DNA from: Candidatus Nanopelagicales bacterium
GTDB taxonomy: Bacteria; Actinomycetota; Actinomycetes; S36-B12
Assembly (NCBI GenBank): GCA_044336815.1
Contig: JBIIOU010000001.1
Span: forward strand, 1,208 to 65,207
Reading direction: 5' to 3'
DNA length: 64,000 nucleotides
This document shows, piece after piece, positions 4,033 to 11,695 of this stretch. Within the stretch, counting starts at the first letter, position 1. Every line of letters starts with the position of its first letter. The notes under the pieces are model-generated. The model saw only the letters and a program-made list of their open reading frames with translations, was not told where the DNA came from and made no database searches. The position numbers and the translations under genes were made by a program.

Positions 4033-4153
4033 AGCCTCAGGCTAGCGGCCCGCGTTAGTCTAAAGTTGGTAGCGTCACGCATCCTTCAGCTCGAGCGTGC
4101 GCGTTGTTAGGGGGACGATGCTCAGGATGGTGAATTGGAACCTGGCTAGCGCG

Positions 4154-4702
4154 ATGCGCACAAGTACTCGCGCGTCAGCGATCGCGACGCTTATATTACT
4201 GGCACTAATGCTTACTGCCTGCGGTCGCGAGGTAAGTGGACAACAAGCTCGTGACAACGAAATGGGCTTGTTAATACTTGCTGATGCAGATCGCGCGCCG
4301 GTGCCGGCGATAACCGGTGAGGCACTTAGCGGCGGCAAAATTGGGATTTCCGAATTTGGTGGCAAAGTAGTTGTGCTGAACGCCTTCGCATCCTGGTGCA
4401 CGCCATGTCAGCAGGAGTTGCCGGTTTTAGCTGCCGCTGAAAAACAATATCCGAATGTGCAATTTCTGGGCCTTGATGTTCAAGACAATGACGAGGCCGC
4501 GCTCGGGTTCCTCGCTGCCGAAGGCGCCACCTATCCGGTGATCAAGGACCCGGCCGGCGACCTGCTAGCTCAGTTCACCATCAACCCGGCCAAGGGCCTA
4601 CCGGTCACGTTTTTCATTGATGAACAAGGAAGGGTGGCTGGGAGAATACTTGGCAAAGTAACTACTGAAAGCTTGGCCGCCGCCATAAAATCCCTCACGT
4701 AA
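4154..4702 (+). CDS. TlpA/ResA-like thiol:disulfide oxidoreductase lipoprotein
   Basis: Thioredoxin-fold motif FASWCTPCQQELP. ATG 4154 gives a canonical lipoprotein signal MRTSTRASAIATLILLALMLTAC. The ORF extends upstream to GTG 4097. Confidence 0.85.
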   Translation: MRTSTRASAIATLILLALMLTACGREVSGQQARDNEMGLLILADADRAPVPAITGEALSGGKIGISEFGGKVVVLNAFASWCTPCQQELPVLAAAEKQYPNVQFLGLDVQDNDEAALGFLAAEGATYPVIKDPAGDLLAQFTINPAKGLPVTFFIDEQGRVAGRILGKVTTESLAAAIKSLT

Positions 4703-4774
4703 TGCAGTAGCTGGCACGACACTTATACTACCTAATTCGCGACACTAAGTTGCGTCAGATGAATGGAGTCAAAC

Positions 4775-5026
4775 ATGGCTGACGAGATTATTGAAATTGG
4801 CGAGGACGTTGAAGTAGACATTGTTCTGGACGAATCGGGTATGCCAATCGGAGCGATTGTTGATGATCTGATCGTCGCGACTGGCGCCGGGGGCACGGTT
4901 GTCGACGAGACAATTGATGTTCTAGACGCTGACGGCAACCTAGTGCTCGAAGACGAAATTGTTTCGGTCTTTGATGCTGACGGTAATTTAGTCGCCGTTG
5001 AAGAGACTATTACCACTATCGACTAA
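4775..5026 (+). CDS. Hyper-acidic small protein of unknown function (83 aa; 24 D/E, no K/R/H)
   Basis: GGAG lies 6 nt upstream of ATG 4775 (ORF-track start ATG 4763). Composition is restricted to D,E,I,V,L,A,G,T,S,N,M,P,F. Internal duplication DADGNLV x2. I recognise no homolog. Confidence 0.55.
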   Translation: MADEIIEIGEDVEVDIVLDESGMPIGAIVDDLIVATGAGGTVVDETIDVLDADGNLVLEDEIVSVFDADGNLVAVEETITTID

Positions 5027-5225
5027 AGCTGCGAAGCCAGTAGTTTGGCGCCATGCCCATAGATAGTGACCCACTAATAAGTGGTGAGCGTTCAAAGATC
5101 CTGGACGAGATGGGTTATGGCGGCCAACTACTATTGTGTGAGCGGTATTAGCCGGTTACGGCAAAGGCGTTATCTTTGATGGAGGTGGTACCGCGAGGTG
5201 CTAGCCATCCGAGACTGGCGGAGCA

Positions 5226-6089
5226 GTGATGCACAGGTTTGATTGCAACGCGCTCGTGAGTCCGATCGCACTCGCCATGGCGATAACGCTCGCCAGCCTC
5301 GGTGCGCAGCCCGCCCAAGCCGACTCGCGTAAACCCGCTGACATGGTGCTAAATTCCTTGCCGGTTTCGGTTGAAATGGCATCGGGCTATTCACGCTCAC
5401 TATTTCGACATTGGACTGATGGTGACGGCAACGGTTGCGATGCCCGCAAGGATGTATTAATTGAAGAAGCTACAGCTGGTCGAGTAGTAGGTTGCACCGT
5501 GGTGGGTGGTGTGTGGCAGTCCGTTTATGACGGCGTTAGCACCTCAAACTCGAGCACTTTCGATGTTGACCATCGGATACCACTTAAAGAGGCTTGGGAT
5601 TCTGGTGCTTGGCGGTGGTCTGCATCGACTCGTGAGGCATTTGCGAATGATCTGGGATTCGCGGATTCACTCATCGCGGTGAGTGCTTCATCCAATAGGT
5701 CAAAGTCCGATCGTGATCCGGCCGAATGGTTACCGAAATACGAGGTATGCACTTATGCAAAAACCTGGATTGCGGTTAAGTACCGGTGGCGGCTCGCGGT
5801 CGATACCACCGAGAAGTCAGCGCTGCAGCGAATTATCGGATCATGCCCAGGGCTCATGCTGGTACCTGACCTAGCGAGTATCAATACAGATCCGAGTGCC
5901 GCCCGCCCGAACTCGTCAGCGCCAGCCCCGACGGAGCCGATGGCTCCCACTGGTGGCGCAACCGACCCGCGCTTTCGCACCTGCGGTGAAGCGATCGCAG
6001 CTCGATACGGACCCTACCTAGTTGGCCGCGACGAGGAATACTCCTGGTACATCGATCGTGACAAAGACGGAGTCGTCTGCGAACGCTAG
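5226..6089 (+). CDS. Secreted DUF1524 (GmrSD C-terminal, HNH-like) nuclease fused to a C-terminal Excalibur calcium-binding domain
   Basis: Signal peptide ending AQPAQA. DUF1524-type motifs DVDHRIPLKEAW and LIAVSASSNRSKSDRDPAEWLP. C-terminal CGEA...YIDRDKDGVVCE matches the Excalibur DxDxDGxxCE signature. Confidence 0.8.
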   Translation: MMHRFDCNALVSPIALAMAITLASLGAQPAQADSRKPADMVLNSLPVSVEMASGYSRSLFRHWTDGDGNGCDARKDVLIEEATAGRVVGCTVVGGVWQSVYDGVSTSNSSTFDVDHRIPLKEAWDSGAWRWSASTREAFANDLGFADSLIAVSASSNRSKSDRDPAEWLPKYEVCTYAKTWIAVKYRWRLAVDTTEKSALQRIIGSCPGLMLVPDLASINTDPSAARPNSSAPAPTEPMAPTGGATDPRFRTCGEAIAARYGPYLVGRDEEYSWYIDRDKDGVVCER

Positions 6090-6379
6090 CCCTCGTCGGG
6101 GCGCAGTTTGCGAAGTGACATCACCAAGGCCACAATCCAGCCGACAAGTGTCCAACCAAGTAGTAAATCGACCAAGCCAACACTGACGTGGGTGCGGAGA
6201 TTTCGAACCGCAGCAATGGCCCACGGCAACATGTAGCCAGCGGTGAGGATTGCTAGCACTACCGAAAGTACTTTCGTAAAGGTACTTGTTTGGTAGCGAT
6301 CGCTCACCTCGATATAGATACGTTGCTCGGAGGATGACGAATCCGAGGAGCCCGGCGGTGGCATCATTGAGTCGCTCAT
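6086..6379 (-). CDS. Superinfection-immunity (Imm_superinfect-like) family small membrane protein
   Basis: Two TM segments carrying the family-typical pattern LPWAIAAVRN...LLLGWTLVGWIVALVMS. Its stop codon shares the tetranucleotide CTAG (6086-6089) with the nuclease gene. Confidence 0.7.
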   Translation of the reverse strand: MSDSMMPPPGSSDSSSSEQRIYIEVSDRYQTSTFTKVLSVVLAILTAGYMLPWAIAAVRNLRTHVSVGLVDLLLGWTLVGWIVALVMSLRKLRPDEG

Positions 6380-8706: not shown

Positions 8707-10257
8707 TTAGGCGCGCGACTCAAACATCCCAAATAGCGCGGCGATACCAAGTACCGAACGTGGTGAATACGCGGCTCGCCAGAGCCCACCATGGTTTGCT
8801 CCCTGTACGAAAAGCTCCATTGGGTTTTGCAATTCGGTAGCGGGATTCGCCGTAGCACTCGGATTTCTTAGGTCGTGCACCAACAATGCGGCCATCAAAG
8901 TGGTTGAAGTTGCTGGCTCGAAGACTTCTATGCCGAATCTTCCTGCGCCAGCATACGCGGAAGCGAGAGCACGACTCTTTACTACAGATTGTGTCCGCGT
9001 TGCGGGGGCTAGATTGATTGATACCGGTGTACCGGTCGAACGTGCTACCAATGCACGCCATCTTTGGAGGCGCTTTGCGAGTGCATAGTTGGCGCCCTGC
9101 TGCGAGATTAAGGAGTCGTTAAGCCCGACTTCTGTGCCGTCACCGGCGAAAATAGTTTGTTGGTAATTAGGCTCAAACTGTTTGAGGGTGCGCAGAGGAG
9201 TCTGGAGCAGCCCACTAAGGCCTCGGGCATCCCAGCGCCGACGTGATTCAAGGACAACTTCGAGGGGAACCATAAAAGTGTCGGTGGGTGTGGCGAGGTA
9301 GGCAAGGGAAATGTCACGGCTGCTACCGAGTAAGTCGGCAACCACTGCGTCGGCCGCCATTGACAGGAGCACATGTTGTGATCCGTCAGCGTATGCGTAT
9401 GTACCAAGCACGAATGGTTGCCTGATTTCAGCGAGCCAAGTACGAACTTCAGGGGCGCGGGTAAGCAAATTCGCCCCGGCTACATTGGCGATCGCGAGAT
9501 CATCTTCTGGGTGTACCAAGCCATCTACAACTAGCGGCGGGTTGCCGTCAGCATCGAGCTCAATTGGAATTCGTATTGAACCGGCCGTGCTTCGGGCAAT
9601 GTCAATGAGCCGCTGCCAAATTGCGGGCCGTTGCAGGTCGACCGCGTGCACGGTCGCTCCCCAACGCAGGAGTGATCTGATTGGGCCCATTTCGGCTCCG
9701 GCGCCTAACAGCGCGATGTCGACCCCACGCAGATCGAGCCAATCTGGGTTATCCAGCACCAGGTGAATGGCTTCACCGAAACTTGGTTCGGCAATGCCAT
9801 CGTCGACCCATTTGTCGACTTGGTCTCGCAAGTGCCTGCCAAATAGCCGCCTCCCGTGATAGGGCAACGACAGGTCGGACTCCAACTGTGCTGCACCTTG
9901 AACCTGTACCGAGCCAAAGCCAGAGGCAGAAAATGTCGCCATTGCTTCGCCTAAGTTCAACTCCTGGCCATCGCGGCCAAAGCGAAAACGCCGATGCGCA
10001 GAGTCCAAGCCGTCACTTGAGACCTGCAACGCAGCGGCAGGTGTCATGGTTGCCGCCGCGACGATGTCACGTATTGGAGTTAGGTATCCCGATCGCCAAT
10101 CGCGGGTGTGCTCAATGCGCTCGGCAAGTGATGAATCCACTCCGCGAACACAATCAGCGAAGATCGCCCGCCCGGTTGCGCTTGTGCTGCGTTTGCCATC
10201 ACCGCCCGCAGGGAAGCAAACCCCCTCGGGAGTTTGGTAGTCTGAGTTCACTGGCAC
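8707..10257 (-). CDS. Uncharacterised ~516-aa protein with a central Rossmann-type nucleotide (NAD or SAM)-binding signature
   Basis: DIALLGAGAEMGPIRSLLRWGATVHAVDL is a GxGxxG ... acidic residue at the end of beta-2. GTG 10257 lies 13 nt downstream of the decarboxylase stop. The ORF-track start 10545 would overlap that gene by 275 nt. I recognise no family. Confidence 0.55.
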   Translation of the reverse strand: MPVNSDYQTPEGVCFPAGGDGKRSTSATGRAIFADCVRGVDSSLAERIEHTRDWRSGYLTPIRDIVAAATMTPAAALQVSSDGLDSAHRRFRFGRDGQELNLGEAMATFSASGFGSVQVQGAAQLESDLSLPYHGRRLFGRHLRDQVDKWVDDGIAEPSFGEAIHLVLDNPDWLDLRGVDIALLGAGAEMGPIRSLLRWGATVHAVDLQRPAIWQRLIDIARSTAGSIRIPIELDADGNPPLVVDGLVHPEDDLAIANVAGANLLTRAPEVRTWLAEIRQPFVLGTYAYADGSQHVLLSMAADAVVADLLGSSRDISLAYLATPTDTFMVPLEVVLESRRRWDARGLSGLLQTPLRTLKQFEPNYQQTIFAGDGTEVGLNDSLISQQGANYALAKRLQRWRALVARSTGTPVSINLAPATRTQSVVKSRALASAYAGAGRFGIEVFEPATSTTLMAALLVHDLRNPSATANPATELQNPMELFVQGANHGGLWRAAYSPRSVLGIAALFGMFESRA

Positions 10258-10270
10258 AACTGCAGAATAC

Positions 10271-11695
10271 CTATTTGGTTGGCGGGTGATCGTGCGGCCC
10301 AATGGAGCCGAGTTCGTCTGCGACCTCGAGGGTGATGTCGACGTCCGCCATCGTTGTTCGGAAATTGGTAAAACAGGGCCGCAGCCAAACCTGTCCATCG
10401 ATAGTTGCTGGTGAGATGTAGACCCGGCCGTCACGCTGCATCCGAGCGCAAACATCGAGATTGTGCGCATCAAGGTCGGTGCAACCTGGCAACACATGTC
10501 GAAACGGCACAATTGACAATTGCGGTGGTGACGCCAGTACTTCAAAGCGTGGGTGGGCGCTGGCTGAACGATAAAGGTGCTGTGCTTGCTCGCAATTCTC
10601 GGCTATTGCCGCTCGAAATGCTTGGGCACCGTGAACGCGCAGCGCCAGCCATAACTTCATGGCACGCAGGGGCCGTGAGTACTCCAAAGTTATGTCGACC
10701 GCATTCAATTCGTCATCCTCGTGTGGGATGTATGCCTCATCATGGGCAAAGGTGCGCGCAAGGGTTTGCGCATCACGAACCAAGACTGCACTGCAGGCTT
10801 TAGGGACGAACATCCACTTATGTGCGTCGACGCTCACTGAGTCAGCGCGCGAAAGTCCAGCGAAGAGCGGTGCGGTTAGCGGTGCGCTGGCGGCGGGTAG
10901 GCCGTAGGCGCCATCGACATGGAGCCAAATACCGAATGACTCGCAGATATCCGCAAGGGCGGCAATTGGGTCCACAGATCCGGTCAGCGTGGTGCCGGCG
11001 GTGGCAATGACAGCAACCGGCGTAACCCCGTTTGCCAAGTCGAGTGCGATCGCTGCGTGAAGTGCCTCAGGTTGCATACGCCGTTGCACGTCAATCGGGA
11101 TATCGCGAACCGCATTGCGTCCAAAACCCAAAAGTTCAGCCGCACGAGTAATTGAATAGTGGGCTTCGGCTGAGCAATAGATCGCGGGTCGAGTGTCACT
11201 TAGCCCAGTTGTGCGGGAACCAGGGAGTGCCCGTTCGCGGGCGGCAGCGAGCGCGGTGATATTGCTGATGGTGCCACCACTGGTGAATGAACCCAAGCGC
11301 GCGGGGAACCCCAAGAAATCAGCCAGCCAGCCGATGGTCTGGGCTTCCAGGCGCGTTGCAGCCCGGGCGTCTAGTGCCAAATTAATGTCGTATGAGTGGG
11401 CGAGGAGATCTGCCAGCGCACCAATCTCGAGTCCGCTTGAGCCGATATAGGCCAAATATCTGGGGCGTGATTGGGCTAGTGAGGCGTCGAGGACATCACC
11501 CGCGGCATCTAGGCTTTCAATGACATTGCTGCCTTGCTCAGATAGCGGTTTGCGTAGTTCATTGATGAGGAGTTCGCTGATTTCGGTCTCAGATTCACGT
11601 GGACTATCGAAATCTCGCCACGCATGGGCAACGAGCGCCGCGGCGTGCTCAAGTGCAGCTTCCCGACTTGCCCCTAATGAGAGCGAATCCTTCAT
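10271..11695 (-). CDS. Group II pyridoxal-phosphate-dependent amino-acid decarboxylase
   Basis: PLP-lysine motif SVSVDAHKWMFVPKACS. Overall DABA/aromatic/glutamate decarboxylase-like layout. Its start overlaps the upstream gene stop (ATGA, 11692-11695). Confidence 0.9.
   Translation of the reverse strand: MKDSLSLGASREAALEHAAALVAHAWRDFDSPRESETEISELLINELRKPLSEQGSNVIESLDAAGDVLDASLAQSRPRYLAYIGSSGLEIGALADLLAHSYDINLALDARAATRLEAQTIGWLADFLGFPARLGSFTSGGTISNITALAAARERALPGSRTTGLSDTRPAIYCSAEAHYSITRAAELLGFGRNAVRDIPIDVQRRMQPEALHAAIALDLANGVTPVAVIATAGTTLTGSVDPIAALADICESFGIWLHVDGAYGLPAASAPLTAPLFAGLSRADSVSVDAHKWMFVPKACSAVLVRDAQTLARTFAHDEAYIPHEDDELNAVDITLEYSRPLRAMKLWLALRVHGAQAFRAAIAENCEQAQHLYRSASAHPRFEVLASPPQLSIVPFRHVLPGCTDLDAHNLDVCARMQRDGRVYISPATIDGQVWLRPCFTNFRTTMADVDITLEVADELGSIGPHDHPPTK

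Follow-up and report, generated by a model that had tools for sequence, protein, structure and literature searches.

An orphan hyper-acidic protein of Nanopelagicales, predicted to form a beta-meander, and its variable linkage to a secreted nuclease and xylose genes

Does a small protein without a single basic residue serve the secreted nuclease encoded next to it, or does it have a role of its own? The question is raised by a gene located at 4775..5026 (+ strand) of a 64,000-nucleotide stretch of Candidatus Nanopelagicales bacterium (GenBank assembly GCA_044336815.1, contig JBIIOU010000001.1, positions 1,208 to 65,207), hereinafter referred to as the window. Its product is a hyper-acidic protein of 83 residues (the acidic protein), for which the original prediction proposed the function of a cytoplasmic inhibitor or chaperone of the nuclease or, alternatively, of its calcium-buffering partner. 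The analysis conducted here points at a different reading, to which we assign a probability of about one half, namely that of an autonomous, conserved, cytoplasmic polyanionic beta-sheet protein, the gene of which forms the 5' border of a chromosomal region of variable content. Within the sequence available, the acidic gene proved to be independent of any single neighbour. In the following, comparative loci are denoted by L numbers and homologous proteins by P numbers.

The reading frame extends from ATG 4775 to TAA 5024-5026, and its product, MADEIIEIGEDVEVDIVLDESGMPIGAIVDDLIVATGAGGTVVDETIDVLDADGNLVLEDEIVSVFDADGNLVAVEETITTID, is made of only 13 amino-acid types (D14 V13 I11 E10 G8 A7 L6 T6 M2 S2 N2 P1 F1), with 24 Asp/Glu and no Lys, Arg, His, Cys, Trp, Tyr or Gln. 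This composition agrees with what had been described, and the net charge, earlier put at about -24, was calculated as -24.5. With the averages of the window's own open reading frames (ORFs) taken as the chance baseline (D+E 0.102, K+R 0.095), the probability of finding no Lys or Arg in 83 residues is 2.5e-4, and that of finding at least 24 Asp/Glu is 1.8e-6. The frame had been given as 4763-5026, with the product read from ATG 4775; the start was placed at 4775 and not at 4763, because a Shine-Dalgarno sequence GGAG (4765..4768, +) lies 6 nt 5' of this ATG, with GGAG or GGAGGA at the same place in relatives, and because homologues begin at the equivalent Met. The internal duplication is real as well: two hairpin repeat units, DVLDADGNLVLEDE (4916..4957, +, residues 48-61) and SVFDADGNLVAVEE (4964..5005, +, residues 64-77), are identical in 9 of 14 positions, and in the predicted structure discussed below the ADGN of the first forms the turn between strands 3 and 4 and that of the second the turn between strands 4 and 5. 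By inspection, no signal peptide is present in the acidic protein. An antisense ORF at 4732-5016 was considered and rejected as a gene, since stop codons interrupt it in relatives.

Single-sequence search returned 177 homologue clusters at E < 0.01. Among the 120 clusters listed, all but one were 82-97 aa long, with identities of 59-99%, the exception (P0111, 134 aa) carrying an unrelated C-terminal extension. The named homologues originate from freshwater metagenome-assembled genomes labelled 'Nanopelagicales', 'Actinomycetales' or 'Actinomycetes', and the identical protein was found on 23 contigs, where its sole annotation is 'hypothetical protein'. Exhaustive profile search over 1.84 billion representatives gave 57 matches at E <= 1e-3, of which about 40 were short proteins or fragments (30-180 aa); the long ones (P0122 with 21 stretches, P0138 and P0151) were rejected as homologues, being proteins of other repeat types that share just the 'TDADGNL' hairpin, and the repeats of P0122, on reading of the sequence, look like those of the HYR/SprB type. 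Every homologue examined contained 23-31 Asp/Glu and 0-4 basic residues. Pairwise ratios of nonsynonymous to synonymous substitution rates (dN/dS) against relatives ranged from 0.02 to 0.12, and the gene was shown to be genuine and under strong purifying selection. Conservation of the frame, on which the original prediction had made itself depend, was therefore found.

The family is restricted to Nanopelagicales-like freshwater and soil Actinomycetota and is unclassified. Searches of Pfam, NCBIfam, PHROGs and PADLOC produced sub-threshold matches only (DUF3659, NifZ and PDC-M08B), and a literature search for this protein family found nothing. No relatives were detected among IMG/VR viral contigs, INPHARED phages or PLSDB plasmids, on which ground an origin from mobile elements was rejected; the gene is chromosomal and vertically inherited. 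It should be added that three sequences (P0131, P0145 and P0142) appear as fusions of the acidic domain with a GcvT-like N-terminus, a C-terminus similar by eye to GNAT acetyltransferases, or a long N-terminal extension; these are probably artefacts of gene calling or assembly.

The invariant and near-invariant residues are mostly carboxylates (E7, E10, D30, D31, D44, E45, D48, D51, E59, D60, E61, D67 and E77), situated mid-strand or beside turns, together with the turn glycines. Variation is all but absent at about 13 Asp/Glu sites (E7, D30, D31, D44, E45, D48, D51, D53, E59, D60, E61, D67 and D69). AlphaFold2, run with a 51-sequence alignment, gave a model with a mean predicted local distance difference test score (pLDDT) of 93.9 and a predicted template modelling score of 0.74, the five models spanning pLDDT values of 91.9-93.9. 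Antiparallel strands were predicted at residues 7-18, 24-37, 40-51, 56-67 and 72-81, with short turns joining them, and the acidic protein is thus modelled, with high confidence, as a compact five-stranded antiparallel beta-meander of hairpin repeats. Given a model of such confidence, the protein is predicted to be folded and not a disordered polyanion. The structural comparison proposed earlier was performed with Foldseek on this model and revealed no significant neighbour: nothing was found at E <= 0.001 either in PDB, where the best match had E 0.15 with partial template modelling scores of 0.5-0.6 to VtrC/ToxS barrels, or in BFVD. In line with that, profile search against PDB sequences gave no match below E 0.026.

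The model also bears on the suggestion that the DADGN units are calcium ligands of the DxDxDG type, which was not sustained. In both D51-A-D53-G54-N55-L56 and D67-A-D69-G70-N71-L72, Gly occupies position 4 and not position 6 of the consensus, and residues 52-55 and 68-71, examined for a ligand loop of 9-12 residues, form tight four-residue beta-turns between strands in the model. Homologues carry DADAN, DADSN or DSEGH at these sites, the first two being variants in which the Gly of the second unit is replaced.

The next intact gene on the + strand is, as originally stated, that of a nuclease with an Excalibur domain (5226..6089, start at 5226 or 5229), a DUF1524/GmrSD_C His-Me-finger protein with Pfam matches to GmrSD_C/DUF1524 (E 8e-9) and, at the C-terminus, to Excalibur (E 1.5e-11), the N-terminus of which looks like a signal peptide by inspection; we treat it as a neighbour and no more than a candidate partner. 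That the acidic gene lies directly upstream of it is true of the window strain only, since in the closest relatives (L007, L008 and L009, 80-99% protein identity) an intact gene of 143 aa for a FucU/RbsD-like mutarotase lies in between. In the window, alignment with these three loci, blastn breakpoints and tblastn (68% identity over 34 aa) identified a pseudogene remnant of this mutarotase at 5053..5225 (+), consisting of a 32-codon stub (5053-5151), in which GHGD has changed to GYGG and which ends with TAG at 5149-5151, plus a remnant of the C-terminal KGVIFD. The blastn breakpoints place the internal deletion of about 300 bp near 5155-5163, and because the deletion allele is present in 10 independent assemblies, it must be a variant of the population, not the product of faulty assembly. 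Another deletion, about 2.7 kb long, took away xylB (window 6398|6474 versus L008 4842-7568); neither xylB nor xylA or xylF was found across the 64 kb, and the xylose pathway thus appears to be lost from this locus in the population. Judged from these alignments, the acidic gene of the window owes its position beside the nuclease at least in part to recent deletion, that is, to the losses of about 300 bp in the mutarotase and about 2.7 kb with xylB. The acidic gene was kept intact in the population that lost both. The case shows that an adjacency seen in one genome may stem from recent deletion.

The wider picture was obtained from a survey of 66 species-representative genomes, in which 50 loci, those with sequence for 2.5 kb or more downstream, were informative. 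The commonest neighbour of the acidic gene was xylB, found on the same strand within 6 kb in 33 of the 50 loci, followed by the adjoining mutarotase (26/50); the nuclease, located downstream in 20/50 (12 with the mutarotase and 8 without it), was the least frequent of the three, and 12/50 loci had none of them nearby. The acidic gene thus delimits, on the 5' side, a chromosomal region of variable content, which in most relatives comprises the FucU/RbsD-like mutarotase along with xylB, xylA, xylFGH and a ROK regulator, and in which the secreted nuclease occupies a slot in some lineages only. In many loci, 3-6 nt separate the acidic gene from the mutarotase. Every combination of the neighbours was encountered, among them mutarotase-acidic gene-xylB with gaps of 46 nt and 7 nt (L047, L048), acidic gene-xylB (L055), Rieske-acidic gene-mutarotase-xylB in a divergent member (L154), and mutarotase-acidic gene-nuclease with an opposite-strand lactate-dehydrogenase-like gene inserted before the last (L092, L095, L156). 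In L053/L155, an insertion of about 6 kb with six genes lies between the acidic gene and a mutarotase-nuclease-...-xylB-xylA-xylF cluster.

Four further loci were mapped over +-10 kb. L157 and L158 have the order PurU-acidic gene-mutarotase-(two minus-strand genes)-xylB-xylA-xylFGH-ROK and no GmrSD_C gene, and L160 reads acidic gene-(Aldedh, minus strand)-xylB-xylFGH-ROK, with neither nuclease nor mutarotase. In L159, the order is trypsin-acidic gene-nuclease (short form)-xylB-ROK, the stop of the acidic gene overlapping the start of the nuclease.

We also asked the reverse, using 80 metagenome loci with relatives of the nuclease, of which those with at least 900 nt of upstream sequence were considered. 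Among nucleases of the same architecture but less than 60% identical to the query set, none out of 33 was preceded by the acidic gene, and one locus (L105) has mutarotase-nuclease-xylB without it; the nuclease family, moreover, counts at least 5,872 clusters versus 177 of the acidic family. Furthermore, 40 distinct nuclease-adjacent acidic proteins were compared with 27 non-adjacent ones (the latter with at least 2.5 kb downstream). The invariant acidic positions were identical in the two sets, and the means for charge (-24.0 vs -25.6), basic residues (1.1 vs 1.1) and pairwise identity (0.62 vs 0.62) differed little or not at all; on this comparison of sequences, the acidic protein is equally conserved with or without an adjacent nuclease.

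The upstream sequences are in keeping with a separately expressed gene. A -10-like hexamer TATACT at 4724..4729 (+) is the probable promoter of the acidic gene itself: a TAnnnT hexamer is conserved upstream (alignment A2). In about 57 of the 79 distinct regions compared it lies 30-73 nt before the start, with GGAG or GGAGGA following, and it reads TAGACT in 22 of the 79 and TATACT in the window clade. A strict sigma-70 scan detected no promoter on the + strand. Between the acidic gene and the nuclease, no terminator-like site was found. A palindrome, ATATGTTG..CAACATAT, occurs upstream of xylA and xylF, being likely the operator of the ROK-type xylose regulator (XylR); in the form CATATGTTG..CAACATATG it was located at 13681-13843 in L158, 11085-11314 in L157 and 13210-13436 in L160, and it is absent upstream of the acidic gene. 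Because of the conserved TAnnnT and GGAG, the missing terminator-like site and the absence of the XylR palindrome, the acidic gene appears to have its own promoter, from which transcription would read through into the following genes. This promoter is probably constitutive.

In the 5' untranslated region (5'-UTR), just 3' of TATACT, a hairpin CGCGAC-ACTAA-GTTGCG (4738..4754, +; RNAfold -7.2 kcal/mol, z = -1.9) was also noticed. L011, L014, L009 and L010 retain a stem at this site with differing sequences, and a GC-rich hairpin occurs at the same place in many other lineages; taken over the whole set of loci, support is weak (median z -0.6), and the hairpin, though present in the window clade, was rejected as a family-wide element because the statistics across the family are unconvincing. 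No Rfam match to a riboswitch or known RNA was found upstream of the acidic gene.

Several observations weigh against the independence of the acidic gene and should be considered together. Nucleases at least 60% identical to the query set were preceded by the acidic gene in 23 of 27 cases. Since the acidic gene itself served as the query by which the loci were gathered, ascertainment accounts for part of its seeming independence of neighbours, and absence of the nuclease was established within +-10 kb in three maps and not genome-wide. In L053, scored as the acidic gene alone, a nuclease starts about 6.6 kb beyond it, and a nuclease-free locus is therefore no proof of a nuclease-free genome. 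A distal gene (window 8707-10545) is common to all contexts, which hence are versions of a single syntenic region differing in gains and losses of genes, so that synteny neither proves nor disproves coupling. The mode of action, finally, is deduced from composition and conservation only.

With these reservations, we envisage an autonomous and probably constitutive cytoplasmic role of the acidic protein, dependent on none of the neighbours listed. Its predicted array of fixed carboxylates would bind positively charged ligands. The favoured candidate is a basic surface on some nucleic-acid-binding protein, towards which the acidic protein would act as a decoy or mimic, the counter-ions being multivalent cations (Mg2+, Ca2+, polyamines); binding of cations alone would be the alternative. 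Of the resemblance to DNA mimics and nuclease inhibitors suggested at the outset, an action based on charge is still the best guess, whereas similarity in sequence or structure to any known mimic, inhibitor or anti-defence protein was not found. A more specific version, in which a new all-beta polyanionic nucleic-acid mimic controls a DNA-binding protein of the same region, be it the precursor of the DUF1524 nuclease or the ROK-type xylose repressor, is unlikely in our judgement; if true, it would be the first such decoy described for the lineage, with a fold absent from PDB.

Apart from an autonomous role, the acidic protein might be an accessory of the pentose (xylose) locus, either an anti-repressor, titrating the ROK-type XylR by imitation of operator DNA, or a donor of divalent metal for xylose isomerase. 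CarS, a beta-sheet protein and anti-repressor of CarA in Myxococcus, provides a precedent for the former. The frequency of xylB and the mutarotase among the neighbours, the 3-6 nt spacing to the latter, the position of the acidic gene between the two in L047 and L048, and the full loci L157 and L158, where it heads the mutarotase and the xyl genes up to ROK, are all consistent with such a role. It is nonetheless improbable, as the acidic gene was kept where the xyl genes are gone (the window and the mutarotase-less acidic gene-nuclease loci L037, L039 and L079-L087), has no cluster gene nearby in 12 of 50 loci and carries its own promoter-like element without the xylA/xylF palindrome, while Foldseek retrieved neither CarS nor any SH3-like mimic.

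The inhibitor or chaperone reading, in which the acidic protein would be dedicated to the downstream DUF1524-Excalibur nuclease and occlude its DNA-binding cleft with carboxylates before export, in the manner of barstar, NuiA or Nin, is quite unlikely on the present evidence. Sec-exported nucleases with cytoplasmic inhibitors are known, and the two genes are co-oriented with no terminator-like site between them. Co-occurrence with DUF1524-Excalibur genes, of which a survey had been proposed, holds in part: the linkage is seen in 20 of 50 informative species loci and in 23 of 27 close orthologues, it survives loss of the mutarotase in eight species loci, as well as in the metagenome loci L079-L087 and L101-L102 (spacing of 44-57 nt) and in L159 with its stop/start overlap, and the window population, having lost the mutarotase and xylB, kept both the acidic gene and the nuclease intact. 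Against this, constraint on the acidic gene is the same where no nuclease adjoins it, and the +-10 kb maps of L157, L158 and L160 contain none. Of the 20 species loci with a linked nuclease, 12 have the mutarotase in between; in L001 and L155, its stop and the start of the nuclease overlap by 4 nt. The acidic gene and the nuclease are separated by the opposite-strand gene in L092, L095 and L156 and by the insertion of about 6 kb in L053. The acidic gene accompanies none of the 33 more distant nucleases, members of a far larger family.

Properties of the nuclease itself point in the same direction. The mature protein is acidic, with an isoelectric point (pI) of 5.2 and a charge of -2.4 on the catalytic domain, and therefore offers no gross electrostatic complementarity to the acidic protein. 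Its invariant residues include DH, N141 and N157 as well as four Cys (C71, C90, C175 and C207), the latter conserved without exception in 21 orthologues. In a protein that is exported, such Cys suggest structural disulfides and little activity in the reducing cytoplasm. Owing to this and to the acidic pI, the nuclease is probably inactive before export. Similarity of the acidic protein to known inhibitors was likewise missing (no PDB sequence match below E 0.026, best Foldseek E 0.15, no Pfam family).

The weakest alternative, a partner that would supply or sequester Ca2+ for the Excalibur nuclease through DxDxDG-like loops, may draw on the dense carboxylates, the conserved Asp around the two turns (D48, D51, D53, D67, D69) and the Excalibur domain of the window nuclease, but was weakened to the point of being very improbable by the D-x-D-G-N motif in a four-residue turn, the unconserved Gly of its second unit, the lack (by inspection) of a signal peptide in a protein whose client would act extracellularly, and the presence of the acidic gene also before nucleases without Excalibur (L031, L041, L044, L045, L057, L060, L069 and L159).

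As for the genes around the acidic one, those of the relatives were assigned with NCBIfam models: XylA (Arthrobacter type) with 553 bits at a cutoff of 447, XylB with 375 bits (cutoff 380), the XylF-like binding protein with 189 bits (cutoff 390) and the mutarotase with 87 bits to the L-fucose mutarotase model, below the cutoff of 141 (E 1.3e-24). Putative extracellular DUF1524 nucleases with a C-terminal Excalibur domain have been noted before, with no mention of an inhibitor (PMC5714182). The stop of the mutarotase and the start of the nuclease overlap by 4 nt at L001 6267-7351 and L155 4570-5675, an overlap suggestive of coupled translation. A cytoplasmic sugar mutarotase and an exported nuclease are strange companions, and their pairing might connect the scavenging of nucleic acids with the use of pentoses. 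Downstream of the nuclease and convergent with it, 6086-6379 (-) encodes a 97-aa membrane protein of the Imm_superinfect family (PF14373, E 4.5e-13), the stop codons of the two overlapping by 4 nt; the convergent pair recurs in L001-L003, L007-L009, L012 and L057. The gene that directly precedes the acidic one, at 4097-4702 (+), codes for a TlpA/AhpC-like redoxin, the N-terminus of which resembles a signal peptide or that of a lipoprotein; it is found at this place in the window clade only (L007-L012, L014) and could be linked to disulfide formation in the cysteine-rich exported nuclease.

Nanopelagicales, acI-type freshwater actinobacteria, are among the most abundant freshwater bacteria and possess streamlined genomes. 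A small gene held under strong selection in at least 66 species-level genomes is for that reason likely to matter to the cell. The family has neither a Pfam or NCBIfam model nor a solved structural relative and combines this with extreme charge density, which makes it a cheap target for structure determination and for fishing of partners. If a protein decoy, the acidic protein would extend the known nucleic-acid mimics by an all-beta scaffold; if a cation binder, it would bear on the ion economy of oligotrophic freshwater cells.

How does the acidic protein compare with the systems already described? Loops of the EF-hand-like or DxDxDG type share with it the Asp-rich turns with Gly, but differ in that the Gly of the acidic protein stands at position 4 and not 6, in a four-residue beta-turn, with no Glu at position 12. 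Pfam family DUF3659 (PF12396), an uncharacterised repeat family on which one paper was found, concerning fungal lipid-droplet proteins, shows the same hairpin pattern 'D..G..hG.hhD', and 20 of 51 homologues match it at E < 0.01 (best 6.1e-6); the window protein, however, reaches only 15.1 bits (E 0.021), below the gathering threshold of 24.8 bits, and the resemblance may be that of a shared hairpin motif only.

In barstar/barnase, NuiA/NucA of Anabaena and Nin/NucA of Bacillus subtilis, the likeness consists in a small acidic cytoplasmic protein beside a co-oriented nuclease with a signal peptide. The differences are the absence of sequence or fold similarity, the linkage to the nuclease in 20 of 50 loci only and usually with the mutarotase in between, and a nuclease that is not basic here. 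With the mimics Ocr, ArdA, Ugi and CarS, on the other hand, the acidic protein shares strong negative charge on a rigid predicted fold (-24.5; pLDDT 93.9) and near exclusion of Lys and Arg, its charge density of about -0.29 per residue being comparable to that of Ocr, and CarS, an SH3-like protein, shows that all-beta mimics exist. It differs from them in having no Foldseek match in PDB or BFVD and no PHROG or PADLOC match, and in being encoded by a chromosomal gene. By likeness, the acidic protein is thus provisionally placed among the polyanionic binders, as a candidate standing outside every known family of mimics and inhibitors.

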